Of a stretch of DNA of 64,000 bases, positions 7,930-43,911 are shown piece by piece. Within the stretch, counting starts at the first letter, position 1. Each line of letters begins with the position of its first letter. A program made the position numbers and the translations under genes. Below the pieces are notes generated by a model. That model worked only from the letters and a program-made list of their open reading frames with translations. It had not been told where the DNA came from and did no database searches. Source of the stretch: Chiloscyllium plagiosum (lineage: Eukaryota); the NCBI RefSeq assembly GCF_004010195.1, contig NC_057718.1, positions 91,677,337 through 91,741,336 on the forward strand, in the 5' to 3' direction.

Positions 7930-8372
7930 TTTCAGTGCAGAAAGAGACAAGTTGGTCTATCGAGTCTGCATTCACCTCTGAAGAGCATCCTATACCTATA
8001 TCCTATCCCTGTAACCCCGCATTGTACCACGGCCAACCCATCTAGCCTACACATCCCTGGTCACGAAGAGAAAGTGAGGACTGCAGATGCTGGAGATCAG
8101 AGCGGAGTGTGGGTGCTGGTAAAGCACAGCAGGTCAGGCAGCTTCGGAGGAGCAGGAGAATCGATGTTTTGGGCAAGAGCCTTCAAAGGGCACTGCAGAC
8201 GATTTAACAGTCAATCTACCTAACCTACATATCTTTGGACTGAGAGAGGAAACCTACGTAGACATGGGGAGGATGTGCAAACTCCACACAAGAGTCACCC
8301 AAGGTTGGAATTGAAGCCGGTCCCTGATGCTGTGAGGCAACCATGCTAACCACTGAGCCACCATGCTGCCTT
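7930..8372 (-). mobile_element. HE1/V-SINE-like tRNA SINE, interrupted by a PLE-terminus insertion
   Basis: Reverse complement begins ggcagcatggtggctcagtggttagca and matches the + strand copy at 36815; contains the V-domain-like gtttgcacat.ctcccc. Confidence 0.8.
8066..8186 (-). mobile_element. Solo Penelope-like terminal repeat with decayed hammerhead core
   Basis: gagaaagtgaggactgcagatgctggagatcagag... is the same family as 38607-38738; the core is decayed (tgaaggctcttgcccaaaacatc on the minus strand). Confidence 0.7.
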
Positions 8373-17830: not shown

Positions 17831-18252
17831 TTTATTAGACAAAGCTGTCGTTTGACAAAACTGAAAGCTTGCGAGGTATTTTAAGAGTCAACCATATTGC
17901 TGTGATCTGGAATCTCACAGAGCAGGTGAAGGGGGGCAGATACTCCTTCTCTAAAGGAGATTAATATGGACTTAATGTTAAAAAAATACTCATATAGGAT
18001 CAAAAATGTCCAGAATTAGAAACAACAGAAATCTTTGTTAGAGCAAGGATTTTGAGAAAACTTCATTTAAACGTAGAGCTGGAGGGAATTAAGTAGATAG
18101 CTTAGAAAGGAGGAACAGCATCAAAATAGTCCGCCATCAACAAGAGTTAAAGGCTGTTTTTGGAAGATATTATTGCAGAAGTAGTGTGATAAATTATAGG
18201 ATGCAATTTATAGATCAGAGTTCTAGATTTAGCATTTTAAATTCTATGCATT

Positions 18253-19580
18253 GAAAGTTTGTGAGAAGATTTGTAGCTCGGGTGCTCGTTGTTGTGGTTC
18301 TGTTCACCGAGCTGGGAATTTGTGTTGCAGACGTTTCGTCCCCTGCCTTGGTGGCATCCTCAGTGCTTGGGAGCCTCCTGTGAAACGCTTCTGTAATCTT
18401 TCCTCTGGCATTTATAGTGGTTTGAATCTGCCGCTTCCGGTTGTCAGTTCCAGCTGTCCGCTGCAGTGGTCGGTATATTGGGTCCAGGTCGATGTGCTCA
18501 TTGATTGAATCTGTGGATGAGTGCCATGCCTCTAGGAATTCCCTGCTGTTCTCTGTTTCGCTTGTCCTATAATAGTAGTGTTGTCCCAGTCGAATGCATG
18601 TTGCTTGTCATCTGCGTGTGTGGCTACTAAGGATAGCTGGTCGTGTCATTTCGTGGCTAGTTGGTGTTCATGGATGCGGATCGTTAGCTGTCTTCCTGTT
18701 TGTCCTATGTAGTGTTTTGTGCAGTCCTTGCATGGGATTTTGTACACTAAATTGCTTTTGCTCATGCTGGGTATCGGGTCCTTCGTTCTGGTGAGTTGTT
18801 GTCTGAGAGTGGCTGTTGGTTTGTGTGCTGTTATGAGTCCTAGTGGTCACAGTAGTCTGGCTGTCAGTTTGGAAATGCCTTTGATGTATGGTAGTGTGGC
18901 TAGTCCTTTGGGTTGCGGCATGTCCTCGTTCCGTTGTCTTTCCCTTAGGCATCTGTTGATGAAGTTGCGCGGGTATCTGTTTTTGGCGAATACCTTGTAT
19001 AGGTGTTCTTCTTTTTGCAGTTCTGGTGTACTGCAGTGTGTTGTGGCCCTTTTGAATAGTGTCCTGATGCAGCTTCGTTTGTGTGTTGGGGTAGTTACTT
19101 TCATAGTTTAGGACTTGGTCTGTGTGTGTGGCTTTCCTGTATACCCTTGTNNNNCTTTTGAATAGTGTCTTGATGCAACTTCGTTTGTGTGTGTTGGGGT
19201 GGTTGCTAGCGTAGTTCAGGACTTGGTCTGTGTGTGTGGTTTTCCTGTATACCTTTGTGGTGAATTCTCCGCTCGGTGTTCTCTGTACTATCACGTCTAG
19301 GAATGGGAGTTGGTTGTCCTTTTCTTTCTCTCTAGTGAATCGGGTTCCTGTGAGTGTAGCGTTGATGATCCGGTGTGTGTTCTCTATTTCTGTGTTTTTA
19401 ATGATTACAAAGGTGTCATCCACATATCTGACCCAGAGTTTGGGTTGAATTTGCGGTAAGACTGTTTCAGAGCCCATCTCTGGACTCATAGCAGAAGCGG
19501 TAATGCAAAGATTAGAACAAACAGTCTTACCGCAAGTTCAACCCAAATTCTGGGTCAGATATGTGGAAGACACCTTTGTA
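18253..19580 (-). mobile_element. Penelope-like element (Penelope/Poseidon type): RT + GIY-YIG endonuclease + 3' terminal repeat, 5'-truncated with terminal inversion
   Basis: WVRYVDDTF, LPFLDV, VYRKTTHTDQVLNY..NHP; downstream VYKIPCKDC..HYIGQTGR endonuclease; frameshifted. Confidence 0.92.
18326..18366 (-). ncRNA. Minimal type I hammerhead ribozyme motif in the PLE terminal repeat
   Basis: Minus strand GCA-CUGAGGA-UGCCACCAAGGCAGGGGAC-GAAAC-GUC-UGC: CUGANGA and GAAA cores, GUC cleavage triplet, 3-bp stem I, imperfect stem II. Confidence 0.75.
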
Positions 19581-27882: not shown

Positions 27883-28575
27883 CTGCAATGATAAATTGGT
27901 TCTTGATTAATTGCGGTGTAATGATCAGTGCTTTATTATGAGGTCAACATCCACAAATTTAATTAACTTGCCTCAATGGTCATAATTTCCATAGCATTAA
28001 AAAGTGAAAACTTTTTCCAATTAGTTTGCCTCAAACATTTAGTTTGATACATTTTTTAATTAGGACAAATTCTATAATATTTCTTAGAATGCTTTTGCAC
28101 ATGAATATTTATGTTCTTAATTACCTAATATAACTTGGACATGGTTATATTCAGAGTATACAATAGCTCAAATAGTATTTTGATAATATTCAGCCTGGAT
28201 GATGTATTAAATATTGGAAGAAAGCTCAATTAGAAATGACAAAAGTTAAGTTGATCTTAAATGTCTATTTCATAACTGTTTAGAATTTAATCCCAGTGAA
28301 AATAAAAAAAAAACAGGTTTTTAATATCCCTTTTTAGGAGTTTGTGTTTGATGCCAATTGTAATGGCTTTAATTGATATGATTAGGCTATGGCTCGGAGC
28401 ACCAAGACAAGATGGAATACGCATATTATCTGGATTGGGTTTGTAGTTCAAAATAAATCATGTTTGAATTATTATTCTTCACTGAAGCTTTATTATATGG
28501 GAAGAATATGCATGGTTATGGATAAGCTATTGAAAATGCAAGCTCTCATGCTTTATGCCTTACAAAAGAAAATGC

Positions 28576-28990
28576 TAAAAATCACACAACACCAGGTTAT
28601 AGTCCAGCAGGTTTATTTGGAAGCACTAGCTTTTGGGACACTACTCATTCTCCATAACCACCCCGATGAAAAAGATCATGCTCACAGAATTTATAGCCAA
28701 AGTGGTGCAATGTCATGGAGATGTGACACAGTAAACAATCTTTGATGAAAACTTTCATCTTTTATAATGGGATATGTTGTTTTCATCTAAGGTTGTTTAC
28801 GGTATCACATCTCCATGACACTGCAGTCCTTTTGCAATAAATTCTGTGAGCATGATCTTATTCTCCACAACCACTTGAAGGAGTGGCGCTCCAAAAGCTA
28901 GTGCTTCCAAATAAACCTGTTGGACTATAACCTGGTGTTGTGTGATTTTTAATTTTGTACACCCCAGTTCCAACACTGTCACCTCCGAGT
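28576..28990. mobile_element. Palindromic non-autonomous PLE-terminus element with decayed hammerhead core
   Basis: ~175 bp inverted arms around a ~25 nt spacer; 13 bp TSD caaaagaaaatgc (28563-28575 / 28991-29003). Confidence 0.85.
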
Positions 28991-29445
28991 CAAAAGAAAA
29001 TGCAGTGACAAATGGTTTGCAAAGAAACCGAACTGTTTCATCTGGCTATTATTTAGTTAAGAGACAGTAGATGAGCAGGTAGCTGCAGACATTTCTATTC
29101 AGAGAAATCGACTCGTTTGTAAACTTGATTACTAGACCGTGAGCAGTGGAGCTAATTGGTTCGAAATGCTGAACCTAAGAGGTTCAAAGTTTGTGCGAAG
29201 ATTTGTAGCTCGGGTGCTCGTTGATGTGTTTGTTGATGGAGTTTGTGGATGAATGCCATGCCTCTCGGAATTCCCTGGCTGTTCTCTGTCTGGCTTGCCC
29301 TATTATAGTAGTGTTGTCCCAGTCGAATTCATGTTGCTTGTTGTCTGCGTGTGTGGCTACTAAGGATAGCTGGTCGTGTCGTTTCGTGGCTAGTTGATGT
29401 TCATGGATGCGGATCGTTAGCTGCCTTCCTGTTTGTCCTATATAG

Positions 29446-30224
29446 NNNNNNNNNNNNNNNNNNNNNNNNNNNNNNNNNNNNNNNNNNNNNNNNNNNNNNN
29501 NNNNNNNNNNNNNNNNNNNNNNNNNNNNNNNNNNNNNNNNNNNNNNNNNNNNNNNNNNNNNNNNNNNNNNNNNNNNNNNNNNNNNNNNNNNNNNNNNNNN
29601 NNNNNNNNNNNNNNNNNNNNNNNNNNNNNNNNNNNNNNNNNNNNNNNNNNNNNNNNNNNNNNNNNNNNNNNNNNNNNNNNNNNNNNNNNNNNNNNNNNNN
29701 NNNNNNNNNNNNNNNNNNNNNNNNNNNNNNNNNNNNNNNNNNNNNNNNNNNNNNNNNNNNNNNNNNNNNNNNNNNNNNNNNNNNNNNNNNNNNNNNNNNN
29801 NNNNNNNNNNNNNNNNNNNNNNNNNNNNNNNNNNNNNNNNNNNNNNNNNNNNNNNNNNNNNNNNNNNNNNNNNNNNNNNNNNNNNNNNNNNNNNNNNNNN
29901 NNNNNNNNNNNNNNNNNNNNNNNNNNNNNNNNNNNNNNNNNNNNNNNNNNNNNNNNNNNNNNNNNNNNNNNNNNNNNNNNNNNNNNNNNNNNNNNNNNNN
30001 NNNNNNNNNNNNNNNNNNNNNNNNNNNNNNNNNNNNNNNNNNNNNNNNNNNNNNNNNNNNNNNNNNNNNNNNNNNNNNNNNNNNNNNNNNNNNNNNNNNN
30101 NNNNNNNNNNNNNNNNNNNNNNNNNNNNNNNNNNNNNNNNNNNNNNNNNNNNNNNNNNNNNNNNNNNNNNNNNNNNNNNNNNNNNNNNNNNNNNNNNNNN
30201 NNNNNNNNNNNNNNNNNNNNNNNN
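29446..30224. other. Assembly gap (N run)
   Basis: Run of N bases. Confidence 1.
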
Positions 30225-30231
30225 TTTTGTT

Positions 30232-30271
30232 GCAAACGTTTCGTTCCCTGGCTAGGCTACATCATCAGTGC
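30232..30271 (-). ncRNA. Minimal type I hammerhead motif (minus-strand copy)
   Basis: GCA-CUGAUGA-UGUAGCCUAGCCAGGGAAC-GAAAC-GUU-UGC; intact cores, weakened stem II. Confidence 0.65.
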
Positions 30272-30530
30272 TTGGGAGCCTCCTGCGAAGCGCTTCTTTG
30301 ATGTTTCCTGCGGTGTTTATAGTGGTCTGTCCCTGCCGCTTCCGGTTGTCAGTTTCAGAGGCATGAGGCATGGCATTCATCCACAAACTCCATCAACAAA
30401 CACATCGACCTGGACCCAATATACCAACCACTACAGCGGACAGCTGAAACTGACAACTGGAAGCGGCAGGGACAGACCACTATAAATACCGGAGGAAACA
30501 TCAAAGAAGCGCTTCGCAGGAGGCTCCCAA

Positions 30531-30570
30531 GCACTGATGATGTCGCCTAGCCAGGGGACGAAACGTTTGC
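30531..30570 (+). ncRNA. Minimal type I hammerhead motif (plus-strand copy)
   Basis: GCA-CUGAUGA-UGUCGCCUAGCCAGGGGAC-GAAAC-GUU-UGC; intact cores, GUC/GAC stem II base, palindromic AAACGUUU stem III. Confidence 0.78.
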
Positions 30571-31271
30571 AACAAAAACTTCCAGCTCGGCGAACAGAAC
30601 CACAACAACCTAAGAGGTGGCAACAGTGATTTCAGCTGAGATATCTGATGCTGGTATTGAGTCAGCCCATTGGTGAAAGAAGTAATAGAGTGGAGCCTGT
30701 CCAAAGTTCAACAGTTATTAGTCTTGCCATAAGGGTGGAGATTGTTGGAAAGCTCAGTTTGGCCTGATGAAAAAAATTTGCATCACACACAAGTCCACAT
30801 CAAAAACATAACATTAATTCTCTTTACTGTTTTGTAATAGATTCTAAACATTACAATGAAATTTATTCATGTACTTTCATTTGCAGTTTGCTGCCGCTAG
30901 ATTAATTTCTGAATGAACCCCATTTGTGATTGTAGTCTGAAAGTGTTATTTGGCTGTCAGTTGGTAAAGAAAATTAGATTTTCTGTAAGTGATATGGTCA
31001 ACAATCCCAAGTTTATTTTTCGCATAAACTCAAAAATATTTGGACTTTATTTAATTAGCAATTTCACACAACAACCCAGTGATGCCTGGATTCTTTTTTT
31101 GACTGACAGGAACATTTTATCTTGTATGCAAACCCTCAAAAAGGCCCGCGTTGACCTTTTAGGGAAACAGTCAAATTCTGGCGCAGGCAGCAAGCTTATT
31201 TCCAGTAGCAACAAAATAATAACTATATTACACAAATTTAGAAAAGATTTCCTAGGATTTTGCTGAAATTG

Positions 31272-34559: not shown

Positions 34560-36350
34560 CACTGAGCTCACTTCTTCCTGCCTTAACTCCATCCTTTCTC
34601 CACTTGTCCAGACCCTACATCCACAACTCCTCTGATGCCCTCTACCATATTGACAATTTCTAGTTTCCTGCCCCTAACTACCTTCTGTCACCATGAATGT
34701 CCAATCCCCCTATTCTTAATTCCCCACCAGGATGGACTAAGAACTCTTGGCATCTTGGTTGACCAGAGGTCTGAACAATCCTCATCCACCACCACTCTCC
34801 TCTGCCTGGCTGAACTTGTTCTCTCACTGAACAATTTCTCCTTTAATTCATCTCACTTTTGCCAAGCCAAACCCGTGGCTACGGGCACCTGCACAAGTCC
34901 CGGTTATGTCTGCCTCTTTATGGGGTATGTGGAACAATCCTTGTTCCAGTCTTATGCTGGTCCTCTCCCACAACTTCCATTTTGGTACATTGACATCTGC
35001 TTCAGAGCCACTTCATGCTCCTGCCACAACCTTGAAAACTTCATACATTTGACTTCCAATTTCCACCCCTTATTTCTGACACTTTCTTTTCTTGACCTCT
35101 CGGTCTCCTTTTCGGGAAATAAACTGTCCACTGCATCCCACTACAAAGCCAAGGACTCTCATGGCTACCTTCACTACAGTTCGTCACACCCCACATCCTG
35201 CAAGAACTCCAGTCCATTCTCCCAGTTCCTTCGCCTACGTTGCATCTGTTCGGATGATACCAAACTTCCAAAACAATGCTGCTGACATGGCTTGCTTCTT
35301 CCATGACTATGGTTTCCCACCTACTGTGGTTGACAGGGTGCTCAACCACATCCGACCTATCACTCACGCTTCCGCCCTTGCCCCTTCCCATCACTCACAA
35401 CAGAGAGATCAGGTTTCCCTTGTCCTCAATTTTCATCCCACCAATCTCTGCATTCAGCAGATCATTCTCCGCCATTTCAAACAACTCCAGTAGAATGCCA
35501 CCACCAAACACATCCTCCCCTCACTGCCCTGGTCTGCATTTTGCAGGGATCATTCTCTCTGGGACACTCTCATTCCACAACCACCAACACCAACCACTTT
35601 TCCATTTGCACCTCCTCATGTAACTGTAGAAGGCGCAACACCTGCCCCTTCTCCTCCTCCCTGCTCACCATCCAAGGGCCGACACAGTCTTTCCAGGTGA
35701 AGCAGCATTTCACCTGTACATCCCCCAATCCTGTGTATTGTATTCGCTGCACCTAATCTGGCCTACTCTCCACTGGAGAAACCAGACGCGGACTGGGTGA
35801 CTGCTTTGCGGAATATGTCCAGTCTGTTCGCAAGCATGACCCCCAACCTTCCCATAGCCAGTCATTTTAATACAGTGTCCTGCACACCTGCCTGTATGTC
35901 TGTCCTTAGGATGCTGCAGTGTTCCAATGAATCACAGCGCAAACTGGAGGAACAACATCTCATCTTCAGACGAGGTACTTCACAGCCTTCTGGACTTGAG
36001 TTCAACATCTTTAAATTGTGAACCATTTCTTCCCTTTCTTTTAGTTTGTTTCATGTCCTCTCTCCTCTCATCCCACTACCTGTCCTTTCAAGTCTGGCAG
36101 GAGACACACCATTGTTCTGGCATTCACCCATTCCAATTACTTAACCTGAACTATCAACATCTTTTCAGCACCAGCATCATACACTCATTATCTCCACCAT
36201 CAGCCCACCCAAACTATAGCATAAATGCTGCCCCCTCCACACTTCACTTCAGATCTGATGAAGAGTCATCTACACTCAAAACGTTAGCTTGCTCTCTCTC
36301 CATGGTTGCTTCTGACCTGCTGTGATCTCCAGCATTTGTTGCTTTCAGCA
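34560..36350 (+). mobile_element. Second Penelope-like lineage (Neptune-like), degenerate RT + Cys-rich linker + GIY-YIG + terminal repeat
   Basis: LVLSLNNFSFN, LSFLDL, YLHYSSSHP..CKNS.PFSQFLRLRCICS, CNCRRRNTCPF, FTCTS.N.VYCIRC; terminal ctgatgaagagtcatctacactcaaaacgtt. Confidence 0.85.
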
Positions 36351-37380: not shown

Positions 37381-38606
37381 GATACTCTTGCATTGGGCAA
37401 GGAAATCAAAGGCTATTGAGGGAAGGAAATGTAGATTTAGTGAAAAACTGGATCAGCCATGATCTTATTGAGTAGTGTAGCAGGTTTGAAAAGCCAATGG
37501 TTTACCTCTGCCTAAAATTTGCAGGTTCACACAAAACACCCCAACTGCTGACATGTTAATACAGTTAACAAAGGGAATGCCATTGATGAAGCAACTGAAG
37601 ATGATCGGGCTGGAACAGTTACAACACTGGCATCTGCACAACAATGTGAAGGAATATCCAGAAATATGTGCACAGAAAGCAGGACAAATCCAACCTGACC
37701 AATTGCCAGCCTACCAGTTTACTCTCAATCAGCAAAGTGATGGAATGAGTCATTGACAGCACAATGAAGCAACATTTGCAATGGAATAATCTGCTCACTG
37801 ACACTCAGTTTGGGTTACCAATGCTACTTAGCTCCTGACCTCATTACAACTTTGGTCCAAGCATGGTAAAAAGAACTGAACTCCAGAAGTGCAGTGAACT
37901 GACTGCCCTTAGTGTCAAGGTGCAACTAACCAAGTATGGCATCAAGGAGTTCTAAGAAAATTGGAGTCAAACCTAAGATATGAGAAGATGGTTGTGGTTG
38001 GTGGAGGTCAATCATCTCAGCTCCAAGACATCACTACAGGAGTCCCTCAGGGAAGATGAAGATGACCCAGGGAGATCTTCAGACAGAAGGAGAAAGATAC
38101 CGACGACGACAGCCGCTGTATGATTTTGAAACTAAGCTGATGGAACTTTAGTAAGTGTTCTATTGGAAAAGTATATTGTTATAGAGTTGGAGGCAGATAA
38201 TAAGCAGGTAAGAGAAAGGGGGGGGGGTCTTAAGACTTGTGAATAGTTGTTGTTTGATGTTCACTTTTAGAGTTAAATAATACATTGATTTTTTTTTAAA
38301 TAGTGGAATCTGGGTGTTCTTGTCACTCATATTTTAACAGATTATGAAGTGTCGTGAGCTTTTCTGGGTGTTTGGTTTAATTAACAGAAAGGTTCACCAT
38401 CATGTCATAATAGTACTGATTTCAGTGTCCCAGAAATCGAAAGCCCTCCCTTCTTCCCTCTTGCCATAGCTCTTCAGCTAGACATTCATCCTAATTGTAA
38501 TCTGAAAAGGAACTAGGGGTAGAAGATGGGAGTGTGACACCAGGTAAACTGTAGATATGATGAAACAAATTATCTCCTCCTTTGCTTGAACAATTCTGTA
38601 ACTGAG

Positions 38607-38738
38607 AGAAAGTGAGGACTGCAGATGCTGGAGATCAGAGCTGAAAAATGTGTTGCTGGAAAAGTGCAGCAGGTCAGGCAGCATCCAAGGAGCAGGAGAA
38701 TCGATGTTTCGGGCATAAGCCCTTCTTCAGGAAAACTG
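38607..38738 (-). mobile_element. 132 bp solo PLE terminal repeat with hammerhead motif
   Basis: 15 bp TSD aattctgtaactgag (38592-38606 / 38739-38753); minus strand CUGAAGA-A-GGGC-UUAU-GCCC-GAAAC-AUC. Confidence 0.85.
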
Positions 38739-39164
38739 AATTCTGTAACTGAGTCTATCTTCTTACTTCTATAGCCACCCACTCATGGTACCAACAGTAT
38801 TCCATAGATGACTAAATATGAAGTCTTGTTTTCTACCTAGCCTCCTAAATTCTCTCTGCAGGATTAACATTTCCCTTTCTACATGTTGTTGGTACTCGTG
38901 GACCACAACCACTGCCTATGGCATAGGGTAAATAAAATCAAAGAGTTAAATGCATGGCTCAGAGATTAATGTGGCAGGGATGAGTTTCAGTTCATGGGGC
39001 ACTGGCAGCAGTACTGAGGTAAAATGTATTTGTTCCAGTTTGAAGGGCTTCACTTGAACTGTGCTGGGATGATGTCCTTGCTAATCTAGTAACTAAGGAT
39101 ATAAAGACAGCTGTAAACTAATTAGAGGATGGGGCTGTTTCTGAAGAGGTTTAAAAATGTATAG

Positions 39165-41178: not shown

Positions 41179-42634
41179 AAAATAAAAGGACATGGCGGCT
41201 TTGCAGGGCAGCTATTTAAGTAATGATATCAAGAATGGGAATGGTAGGGACAGGATATATCAACAGAAAAACAGCAACAATTACGGTCAAAGGTGGCAAG
41301 AAATTGTAAATGGCAAATCAACAGCTTTTTACTTAAAATATGCACAGCATTTAGAAAAAATGCACTGTTGGGAGTCGTCTCTAGACCCCCTAACAGTACA
41401 TAGAGTGTATGACAAAGAATAAATCATGAGATGATGACAACATGTAAAACTAACTGTATATTAATCTTGGTAACTTTAATCTGTGCATTGACTGGGAACA
41501 CCAAATTAACGGAGGTGGCCATGAGGAAGAATTCACAGAATGTATTCAGGACAGTGCCTTGGATCAAAATGTTGTGGATCCAAATAGGGATCTGGTGATG
41601 TGTAATGACCCAGGTTTAATAAATGATCTCAGGGTAAAATATTCCCGAGGAAGCAGTGAACACAACATGGCACAACTTAACATTCAGTTGAGGGGAAGGA
41701 ACTCTGGTTGTAAACAATTATGTTAAACTTAAAAAGGATAAATAACAAAGGAATATGGGTAGAATTGACTGGAACAGACAGTGAATGGAGTTTAGCAGAG
41801 AAGACAACAGTACACAATTAAATATATACTATACTTCAAAATTTATTCTAAAAGTATATCCCAGTGAGGAAATAGAATTCGTGGAAAGGAACAGACCAAC
41901 TATGTTGACAAAGGAAGTTAAGAATAGTGAATAATCGAAAGAAAAAAAAACACTCAACGTGGGTCCCTATAACTGCCTTAACTGCAGTCACATCCTCCTG
42001 TCCCTGAACATAAACCAAGTTTGAATTACCTAATCCGAGGGGTCAGAGAACCTTTTATAGCATCGTGTCCAGTTAACTAACTCCATTTTGATATGGCACA
42101 ATATCTAACTCCAGCTCTTCAACTCAGCCCCAAAGTTGCTTGAGTTGCAAATACTTGCTATGGTTATGTTCACTTGGGAGCACCTTGGCATCTGACAGCA
42201 ACATCTCACCCAAATGGCCATCCACTCACTAACATTCCAAATCTTTACCCTGTTTTGTTGTTTTACATTCGTACTGTGCTTGTATCTAACAAAAGTATTT
42301 TTAGGGAAAAGAGAAACAAAACACTAGAGACAACTAGGAACAAAAGATCATGCTATTTTAAAAACTAGAAATATTTACTAATTTTGCTTCCTCATAAAGA
42401 TTAATAAATTGGTTAAGCAAAATATATTTTTGACCAAAACGTGTTAACTCAGCATGATTACCTCAAACTTTAATAGGTTTCATCTGACAGTTGGTAAGCT
42501 AATTAGCCGGTCGTTTCCTGTTTTCCATTTCTCTCTCTTTTTGAATGAGAATTACACTTTCTGGTTTTGCCAAATGTAGAGAGTTTTGTAAATTTAGAAC
42601 AACACATCAACTATCTCAGCATCTAGCATTATCT

Positions 42635-43087
42635 AGGAGAAAGTGAGGACTGCAGATGTTAGGAGATTTGAGTCAAAATGTGTGGTGCTGGGAAAGCACA
42701 GCCTCTCAGGCAGCATTTGAGGAGCAGAGAGTTGACATTCCAAGCATAAGCTCTTCTTCTTCACGCACTGGAACACCGCTGATGACCACAGCCATCTATG
42801 AAGACATAGTGAACATCACATGGAACGTTACTTCTGTCCCCGCTCTCCTGCTCCTCAGATACTGCCTGATAGGCTGTGCTTTTCTAATCAGGCAGTATCT
42901 GAGGAGCAGGAGAGCGGGGACAGAAGTGAACATCACGTGGAACGTTACTATGTCTTCACCGGTGGCTGTGGTCATTGGTGGTGTTCCAGTGAGTGAAGAG
43001 GAGGAGCTTATGCTTGAAATGTCAACTCTCTGCTCCTCAAATGCTACCCGAGAGGCTGTGCTTTTCCAGTACCACACTTTTTGACTG
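42635..43087. mobile_element. Nested palindromic PLE-terminus element
   Basis: Outer arms 42671-42810 / 42947-43086, perfect 41 bp inner arms 42830-42870 / 42887-42927; termini belong to the gagaaagtgaggactgcagatg family. Confidence 0.85.
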
Positions 43088-43189
43088 ATCGAGCATCATT
43101 TGTGGAGGGGGAAAACAGAATTTACATCGAGAACAATGATCCTTTTTCAGAACTGTTTTGAAGACAGATCACTGGACTCAAAATTGAAC

Positions 43190-43565
43190 ATAGTCCAGTC
43201 CATCACACAAACCAGCCTTCCATCCATTGACTCCATCGATTCTTCCTGCTGCCTTGGGAAAGTGACCAACATAATCAAAACTCCCTCCCACTCCAGTTAT
43301 ACTCTCTTCCATTCTCGTTTGTAAATTGCACAAACAGATTTAAGAACAGTTTCTTTCCTCCTGTTATTAGACTTCTGAATGGGCCTCCCAAATTTTAAAT
43401 TTAATGTTGATCTCGCTCTTTGAACACCTTCTCTGCAGCCATAAAATTATATTCTTTGCTCTGTTCTCTTGCCCTATGTGAGATATAATCTGTCTGTACT
43501 GCATTCAAAACAAAATTTTTCACTCTACCTTGATACGTGACAATAATAAATCAAATTAAATGCAA
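43190..43565 (+). mobile_element. Rex1/Babar-like LINE 3' end, inserted in another PLE-type terminal repeat (~43100-43190 + ~43565-43660)
   Basis: IIKTPSHSSYTLF and RFKNSFFPPVIRLLN-like coding remnants; aataaatcaaattaaa tail. Confidence 0.65.
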
Positions 43566-43911
43566 ATTGTTTCCATCTCAACAGATGCTGCCAGACCTGT
43601 CGAGTTTCTCCAGGAATTTGATTTTATTCCAGATTTCCTGCATCTGCAGTTTTCTTTATGTTACATCCATGTGAATGAAGGCCATCAGATCTTGTGGATT
43701 TGTAACCTGCTGCTCTAACAATTTACTGAGTACAACTTACCTGGTCATTGAGATTTTCTTAAGTTCCACCTTCCCTTCCATTTGCTGATTTACAGTTATT
43801 TCTGAGATTTTGCTGGACTCTTGTGGAGCCACAACCATAAGACCATAAGATATAGGTCTATCAAGTCTGTTCCACAATTCGATTGTGGCTGTTATATTTC
43901 TCAAATCCATT

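Follow-up and report, generated by a model that had tools for sequence, protein, structure and literature searches.

A single-locus nested palindrome of apparent Penelope-type termini with an internal micro-inversion in Chiloscyllium plagiosum

Results and discussion

In a 64-kb stretch of repeat-rich animal DNA from Chiloscyllium plagiosum (64,000 nucleotides, hereafter the window), positions 42635-43087 hold a nested palindrome that is present at a single locus, and that probably represents a one-off, locus-specific rearrangement of a dead insertion of a Penelope-like element (PLE) end, in which an inverted duplication would have arisen by template switching and would have been followed by a micro-inversion.

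Structure of the nested palindrome

The geometry read in the original prediction, in which imperfect outer arms surround a perfect 41-nt stem with a 16-nt loop, is present as described in the window sequence. The outer inverted repeat (42671-42810 and 42947-43086) extends over 140 nt at 89% identity, with 15 mismatches and a perfect run of 28 nt, and the inner one (42830-42870 and 42887-42927) over 41 nt at 100% identity, with its arms 16 nt apart; a single axis at 42878.5 is common to both symmetries. The length of about 450 bp given for the palindrome has to be amended: the leftmost 36 nt, 42635-42670, have no right-hand partner, so that the palindrome proper measures 416 nt. The predicted 19-mer does recur in direct orientation, contained in a 25-nt repeat (42808-42832 and 42925-42949) identical at 24 of 25 positions, and the direct match between the loop segments was reached by none of 5000 shuffles. 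The segment whose in-place flip restores pairing best is 42811-42829 exactly, or at most 3 nt wider on each side; once it is flipped, arm pairing is continuous and the score rises from 50 to 69. Folded as RNA, as had been proposed, 42600-43120 yields -369.4 kcal/mol (z -33, equalled by none of 100 shuffles). Six of the 15 outer-arm mismatches lie in two 4-nt clusters, 42778-42781 and 42795-42798, possibly two multi-base events, and in the left arm the second cluster makes a small local hairpin.

The whole is enclosed by a candidate target-site duplication (TSD; 42621-42634 and 43088-43101) identical at 11 of 14 positions; in random box pairs, up to 300 in number, so good a match turns up in about 1%, and a change carried by organism B at 43100 raises the identity to 12 of 14. 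The degenerate TSD suspected earlier is plausible. The arms comprise four pieces of one repeat end (Table 1), namely a left outer piece in minus orientation and complete to the distal end, two partial inner pieces, and a right outer piece. The part found on the left side only, 42635-42670, is likely to mark the priming site of the original insertion. Since private changes are common to both outer arms, the left one (42671-42764) appears to be a copy of the right. The spacer would be captured non-element DNA.

Table 1. Features of the nested palindrome and its borders, by position in the window
Feature	Coordinates	Strand	Remarks
Candidate TSD, left copy	42621..42634	+	11/14 identical to 43088-43101
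Distal (3′) end of PLE-type terminus, left side only	42635..42670	-	Aligns to copies at 8068 and 38606; depth ~6e4-1.4e5
Left outer terminus arm	42671..42764	-	1-nt deletion and private substitutions common to right arm, inner copy without them
Dead minimal-hammerhead motif, left	42734..42764	-	First core C to G; GAAA core reads GGAA; missed by relaxed descriptor
Unique spacer, part 1	42765..42810	+	Depth 5-8 in three organisms; no other match in window
19-mer, left copy, in organism C orientation	42811..42829	+	Loop of a local imperfect hairpin (fold of 42800-42840)
Inner stem, left arm: 13 nt of unique spacer, then partial terminus copy from 42843	42830..42870	+	Organism A records 20 and 22
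Central loop: terminus copy to 42884, then fold-back junction	42871..42886	+	2-3 nt microhomology, about one extra base
Inner stem, right arm	42887..42927	-	Organism A record 22 extends to 42916
19-mer, right copy, flipped in place (micro-inversion)	42928..42946	+	1 base off left copy
Unique spacer part 1, inverted copy	42947..42992	-	Organism B contig, depth 17.7, end placed at ~42948
Right outer terminus, distal end missing	42993..43087	+	Organism B record 6, organism C record 14
Dead hammerhead motif, right	42993-43023		Core C to G; 3 extra bases before stem II
Candidate TSD, right copy	43088..43101	+	In organism B record 8 and organism C record 14

Affinity of the termini

Contigs and reads of four out of 24 sequencing runs, from organisms A, B and C, were compared with 42250-43250 at 85% likeness; all but 9% of the organism C run was read. 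The repeat end that forms the arms recurs at 8068 and 38606 in the window, and its depth reaches 1e4-1e5 in the contigs of all three organisms. Minimal-hammerhead motifs mark the pseudo-LTRs of PLEs, according to the available part of PMC4209133, and the family consensus beside 42843, drawn from contig loose ends, has an intact minimal-hammerhead core. The proposal of PLE-type, hammerhead-bearing termini agrees with this core and with the dispersed, high-copy and often inverted occurrence of the end with TSDs; the arms accordingly appear to derive from a very high-copy repeat end of PLE type. As in the hammerheads described in the sections available of a 2024 study (PMC11167929), the family consensus shows the core together with a short stem II and the palindromic helix III position. 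Unlike those hammerheads, both copies here carry C to G at the first core C, and C3G is reported there to abolish cleavage in an anole PLE hammerhead. The decayed motifs noted earlier are thus indeed present with both cores broken, the left arm having also lost GAAA, and, the copies being inverted rather than tandem, there is no dimer ribozyme.

A relaxed hammerhead descriptor gave three matches in the 64 kb, all of them repeat ends, with the copy at 38606 and the right arm fitting; a second hammerhead in the spacer was considered and dropped, as this descriptor gave no match there. Searched against Rfam at the gathering score, the sequence matched neither hammerhead nor any other family, and 21 of the 22 hits below threshold were miRNA models that match any long hairpin; the reading as a structured RNA or miRNA precursor is not supported. 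The terminus motif had no matches in metagenome contigs. At 38592-38753 the same terminus occurs as a solo copy, bounded by an exact 15-nt TSD, in which the hammerhead motif is near-intact.

No copy of this terminus family was seen joined to a reading frame with reverse transcriptase (RT) plus GIY-YIG. At 36250-36345, however, a decayed RT-like region (tblastn E 1.3e-4 to P0042) is followed by a related end. This end scores 30-31 against the two better terminus copies, with shuffle maxima of 24-27, and the arms of the nested palindrome score as background. A homolog search with the decayed RT-like region found nothing. The decayed element as a whole, 34587-36345, combines this weak RT similarity and the related hammerhead-like end with a stretch near 35730-35790 that we take to be GIY-YIG-like.

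Other PLE remains lie in the window. The RT fragment 19157-19537 has its best matches, among 65 hits from 118 candidates, in proteins of Chiloscyllium punctatum (91%) and Hemiscyllium ocellatum (85%). It falls within a 5′-truncated PLE on the minus strand (18250-19580, with RT matches), at the 5′ end of which the coding stretch next upstream is repeated in inverted orientation, together with a 62-nt duplicated arm. The same family is found in an inverted arrangement at 29184-30610; the arms there are 134 nt long at 96% identity, and two hammerhead-like motifs (30267 and 30535) and a 779-N gap are present. Adjoining the palindrome, at 43140-43655, another hammerhead-type end is apparently split by insertion of a high-copy repeat fragment (~43185-43560).

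Copy number

The nested unit is not repeated at 85% likeness and is single-locus. Depth over the spacer bins 42760-42827 is 6-13 in organism A, 8-16 in B and 5-16 in C, resembling that of the unique flank, and the nested unit therefore does not form a family; the spacer of about 80 nt (42765-42842) likewise has no other match within the 64-kb window. Organism B contigs do contain other head-to-head copies of the same terminus with different spacers, and simple head-to-head palindromes are thus a habit of the terminus family.

These depths bear on the original prediction, which took the object for a non-coding, rod-shaped mobile unit but would see a one-off rearrangement in a single-copy architecture. 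The spacer has depth 5-16, as opposed to 10^4-10^5 on the termini, it is single-locus in A, B and C, and organism C has a simpler form; the architecture is single-copy, and 42635-43087 gives no sign of mobility. It is accordingly very improbable that the whole 450-bp rod is a non-autonomous unit moved by a PLE and symmetrised by conversion. The TSD-like flanks and the intact distal terminus end on the left would suit such a unit, and the available text of PMC3846280 describes unrelated DNA as mobilisable in trans by PLE ends; they are outweighed by the single-locus spacer depth at 85% likeness in three organisms, the lack of a second copy in the window, the broken hammerhead cores of both arms, and the different architecture at the same site in organism C.

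Support from reads and contigs

Three stretches, 42250-42656, 42673-42870 and 42841-42916, are matched by organism A run X4 with no differences. Record 20 begins at 42673 and continues unbroken into the inner stem, and record 22 holds the loop with 30 nt on each side; the left arm, spacer, inner stem and loop are thereby confirmed. On the right, organism B contigs match 42986-43081 with 6 differences and 43054-43216 with 5, and organism C matches 43004-43216 with 9. None of the four runs compared covers the flipped 19-mer on the right, 42928-42946, and depth in run X4 is nil over 42930-42963 and 43100-43133; by the method's own warning, holes in contig coverage prove nothing.

We consider it improbable that assembly of the palindrome produced the flipped 19-mer, or the join to the right half, as an artefact. 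The four best runs, X1-X4, contain 0.68-0.71 of sampled words, and 28% of 31-mers touch 42928 or beyond, so that the right half may be absent from organism A contigs; the unbroken course of X4 record 20 into the inner stem, and the N gaps at two other PLE fold-backs in the window, also speak for an artefact. However, the loop is joined to both stem arms in X4 record 22, organisms B and C contain the right arm and flank at ~94-97% identity, the depths in organism B (17.7-18, as opposed to 9-11) suit a pair of outer arms, and the two 19-mers differ by one base. Moreover, the missing stretch includes unique flank that is present in B and C, which points to contig pruning or filtering. Assembly graphs can be pruned next to high-copy repeats.

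The locus in organisms B and C

Organism C record 14 (348 nt, depth 6.56, with flank at 6.54) consists of the reverse complement of 42774-42884, 9 unplaced bases, and then 43004-43216, and so has one spacer, an inner terminus longer than that right of centre in the window, and the same right flank. Its 19-mer is unflipped: 42774-42884 aligns with 8 differences and no gap, and a flip would cost about 13. Organism C thus has the simple terminus-spacer-terminus form, in one contig known from its coordinates alone. Organism B contigs over ~42948-43083 have depth 17.7-18, as opposed to 9-11 in the flanks, and drop to 9.15 in the record that leads into the flank; these depths suggest that B has two nearly identical outer arms, collapsed into one. 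Flank divergence is 4-5%, with 17 differences over 438 positions to organism B, and 20 plus 2 gaps over ~384 to organism C. Polarity, which depends on one organism C contig in a comparison of A, B and C, is tentative; a deletion between direct repeats spaced 182 bp apart could have removed half of a nested ancestor in organism C.

Proposed history

From the anatomy and organism C, we infer that a PLE enzyme would first have inserted a short head-to-head terminus-spacer-terminus unit with a TSD of ~14 nt. At a later time, in the course of DNA replication or repair, a strand under synthesis may have departed from the left terminus and continued, over a long homology, on the right terminus of the opposite strand. 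It would then have copied the whole spacer in reverse, entered the left terminus, reached 42884, and resumed its original track at 2-3 nt of microhomology near 42884-42887. A single template switch of this kind would yield the outer arms, the two spacers and the inner stem. Finally, the right 19-mer would have flipped in place between short imperfect flanking inverted repeats; the flip is visible in the window, and its timing and mechanism are those we propose. The fold-back type of origin put forward at the outset finds support as the event that made the nest.

The outer arms carry private changes missing from the inner copy, which supports this history. Against it, the divergence of the outer arms (15 of 140) exceeds that of the flanks, with P 0.005, or 0.09 at 11 events when the two mismatch clusters are counted once each. 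Alternatively, the nest might have been built at insertion, by template jumps and self-priming of the PLE reverse transcriptase, and have collapsed later in organism C by deletion between direct repeats; the event would still be a single-locus one, and the flip still later. Inverted truncated copies and palindromic junctions are common in PLE insertions and are ascribed to self-priming in the available parts of PMC3846280 and PMC8557442, other PLE fold-backs occur in the window at 19406-19580 and 30225-30577, the 11% divergence between arms is close to what separates the inner from the outer terminus copies, and the TSD encloses the whole nest. We nevertheless regard construction at insertion as unlikely, since it needs an extra deletion in organism C, since the inner terminus copy is set apart by an indel and several substitutions common to the outer arms, which fits two ages, and since the 16 differences in 200 paired positions (12 events) are near the flank divergence between A and C.

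Arm conversion, transcription and coding potential

The perfect inner stem was earlier taken to point to ongoing intra-strand conversion, which it does not show: P ranges from 0.02 to 0.35 depending on the test. With 16 mismatches placed at random over 200 paired positions, a perfect run of at least 41 arises in 35% of placements, which makes the stem weak as proof of conversion, and Fisher p is 0.024, 0.07 by events, and 0.043 with the 19-mer included. Organism B depths offer a better, if indirect, hint of arm homogenisation.

In RNA run X21, of which ~2% was read, all 583 reads placed fell on repeat parts, with none on 42250-42623, 42760-42827 or 42930-42997; this sample is too shallow to call the locus silent. 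A search across sequencing runs pointed to no RNA run with this sequence. The locus, if transcribed, would form long dsRNA. Among 14 long frames inspected for a host gene there was no Pfam hit (587 shorter non-repeat frames were left out), and a crude splice scan for host exons gave no convincing exon chain; the same scan ranks 42859-42988 as exon-like. A stop-free frame of 145 codons crosses the element (42647-43084) with the 19-mer repeated in frame, a length reached in 0.5% of 2000 shuffles. It has no Pfam hit, depends on the duplication and the flip, and was taken as chance.

The micro-inversion

The edges of the 19-mer have 3-nt perfect inverted repeats, within an imperfect local stem of ~9 bp. 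The flipped state of 42928-42946, itself in none of the four runs, is the reverse complement of the state in the other arm and in organism C record 14. Primate micro-inversions of 17-33 nt, which usually sit in a local hairpin like the one around the 19-mer, are flanked by inverted repeats of 3-75 nt, as set out in the available text of PMC8755829, which doubts simple template switching at very short flanking repeats and proposes break-induced replication.

A second palindrome in the window, 14 kb from the first at 28569-28956, is formed by a different repeat end, with arms at 87-92%, and has 17-25 nt flipped in its left arm. The best flip, 28647-28671, raises the score from 17 to 37, and the direct match of the flipped segment is 14 of 15, reached by none of 5000 shuffles. 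The flipped piece includes a hammerhead-core-like heptamer. Known from the window sequence alone, this flip could be a subfamily variant.

Of the window's four long palindromes, two therefore carry a flipped segment, at 42928-42946 and about 28650-28668, one of the two having been pre-selected by the original prediction. At the avian micro-inversion rate of 0.25-0.39 per Mb per million years, as given in the accessible part of PMC3123225, about 0.05 flips are expected for ~1.2 kb of arms if an age of up to 100 million years is assumed. The organism B depths, in addition, hint at nearly identical arms where those of organism A diverge by 11%. One tentative and rather doubtful explanation is that shark PLE-end palindromes are hotspots of ~20-nt micro-inversion and of arm homogenisation, in which a long fold-back would set a ready template beside ribozyme-derived mini-stems.

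Comparison with known systems

The structure resembles the PLE insertions of Arkhipova et al. 2013 (PMC3846280) and Craig et al. 2021 (PMC8557442), in the portions of both papers available, in its head-to-head termini, one of them truncated, its TSD, and the unrelated sequence between the termini. Those papers describe inverted pseudo-LTRs, palindromic junctions, TSDs and DNA captured between solo pLTRs. Unlike the insertions described there, the one examined here has no ORF, and has a second nested inversion and a flipped internal 19-mer; organism C also suggests that its nest arose after insertion.

In human inverted copy-number variants, one junction lies in a repeat and the other at microhomology, as stated in the accessible parts of PMC4352052 and 10.1101/2023.09.19.558550. 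The structure is like these DUP-TRP/INV-DUP and ODIRA products in having one junction in an inverted repeat, the other at microhomology, and a palindromic junction; unlike them, it adds ~180 bp rather than kilobases or more. The likeness in working is presumed, and an origin or dosage effect is not evident here.

With the micro-inversions of Potapova et al. 2022 (PMC8755829) and Braun et al. 2011 (PMC3123225), as far as the available text of each describes them, the flip has in common its size of 19 nt, its precision and its short imperfect flanking inverted repeats. Unlike them, it lies inside a long palindrome, so that the second arm provides a built-in reference against which the flip is seen as a symmetric internal loop.

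Non-LTR retrozymes, in the part of 10.64898/2026.07.22.740005 at hand, are also non-coding and related to PLE ends, with a hammerhead motif. They are head-to-tail tandems with intact ribozymes, unlike the present element, which is inverted, single-copy and dead: at this locus there is no tandem array, the units are inverted, and both cores are broken. Our literature search, with subscription journals mostly outside it, found no publication on hammerhead-bearing or palindromic Penelope elements in sharks.

Significance

As a single object, the locus carries little weight, being a decayed repeat that known processes rearranged on one occasion. It does make a neat and compact case in which an inverted duplication is combined with a micro-inversion and a relative probably retains the ancestral allele. 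If the hotspot view were true, the many palindromes per genome, each with its reference arm, would constitute a large natural assay of template-switch mutation in the germ line of a vertebrate. The avian survey, in the part of PMC3123225 available, found no link to hairpins for its own micro-inversion hotspots. Should flips prove frequent in the PLE-end palindromes of sharks, a single genome would suffice, with no outgroup, to count their rate and junctions, and such counts would be a test of whether micro-inversion in vertebrates is promoted by long hairpins.
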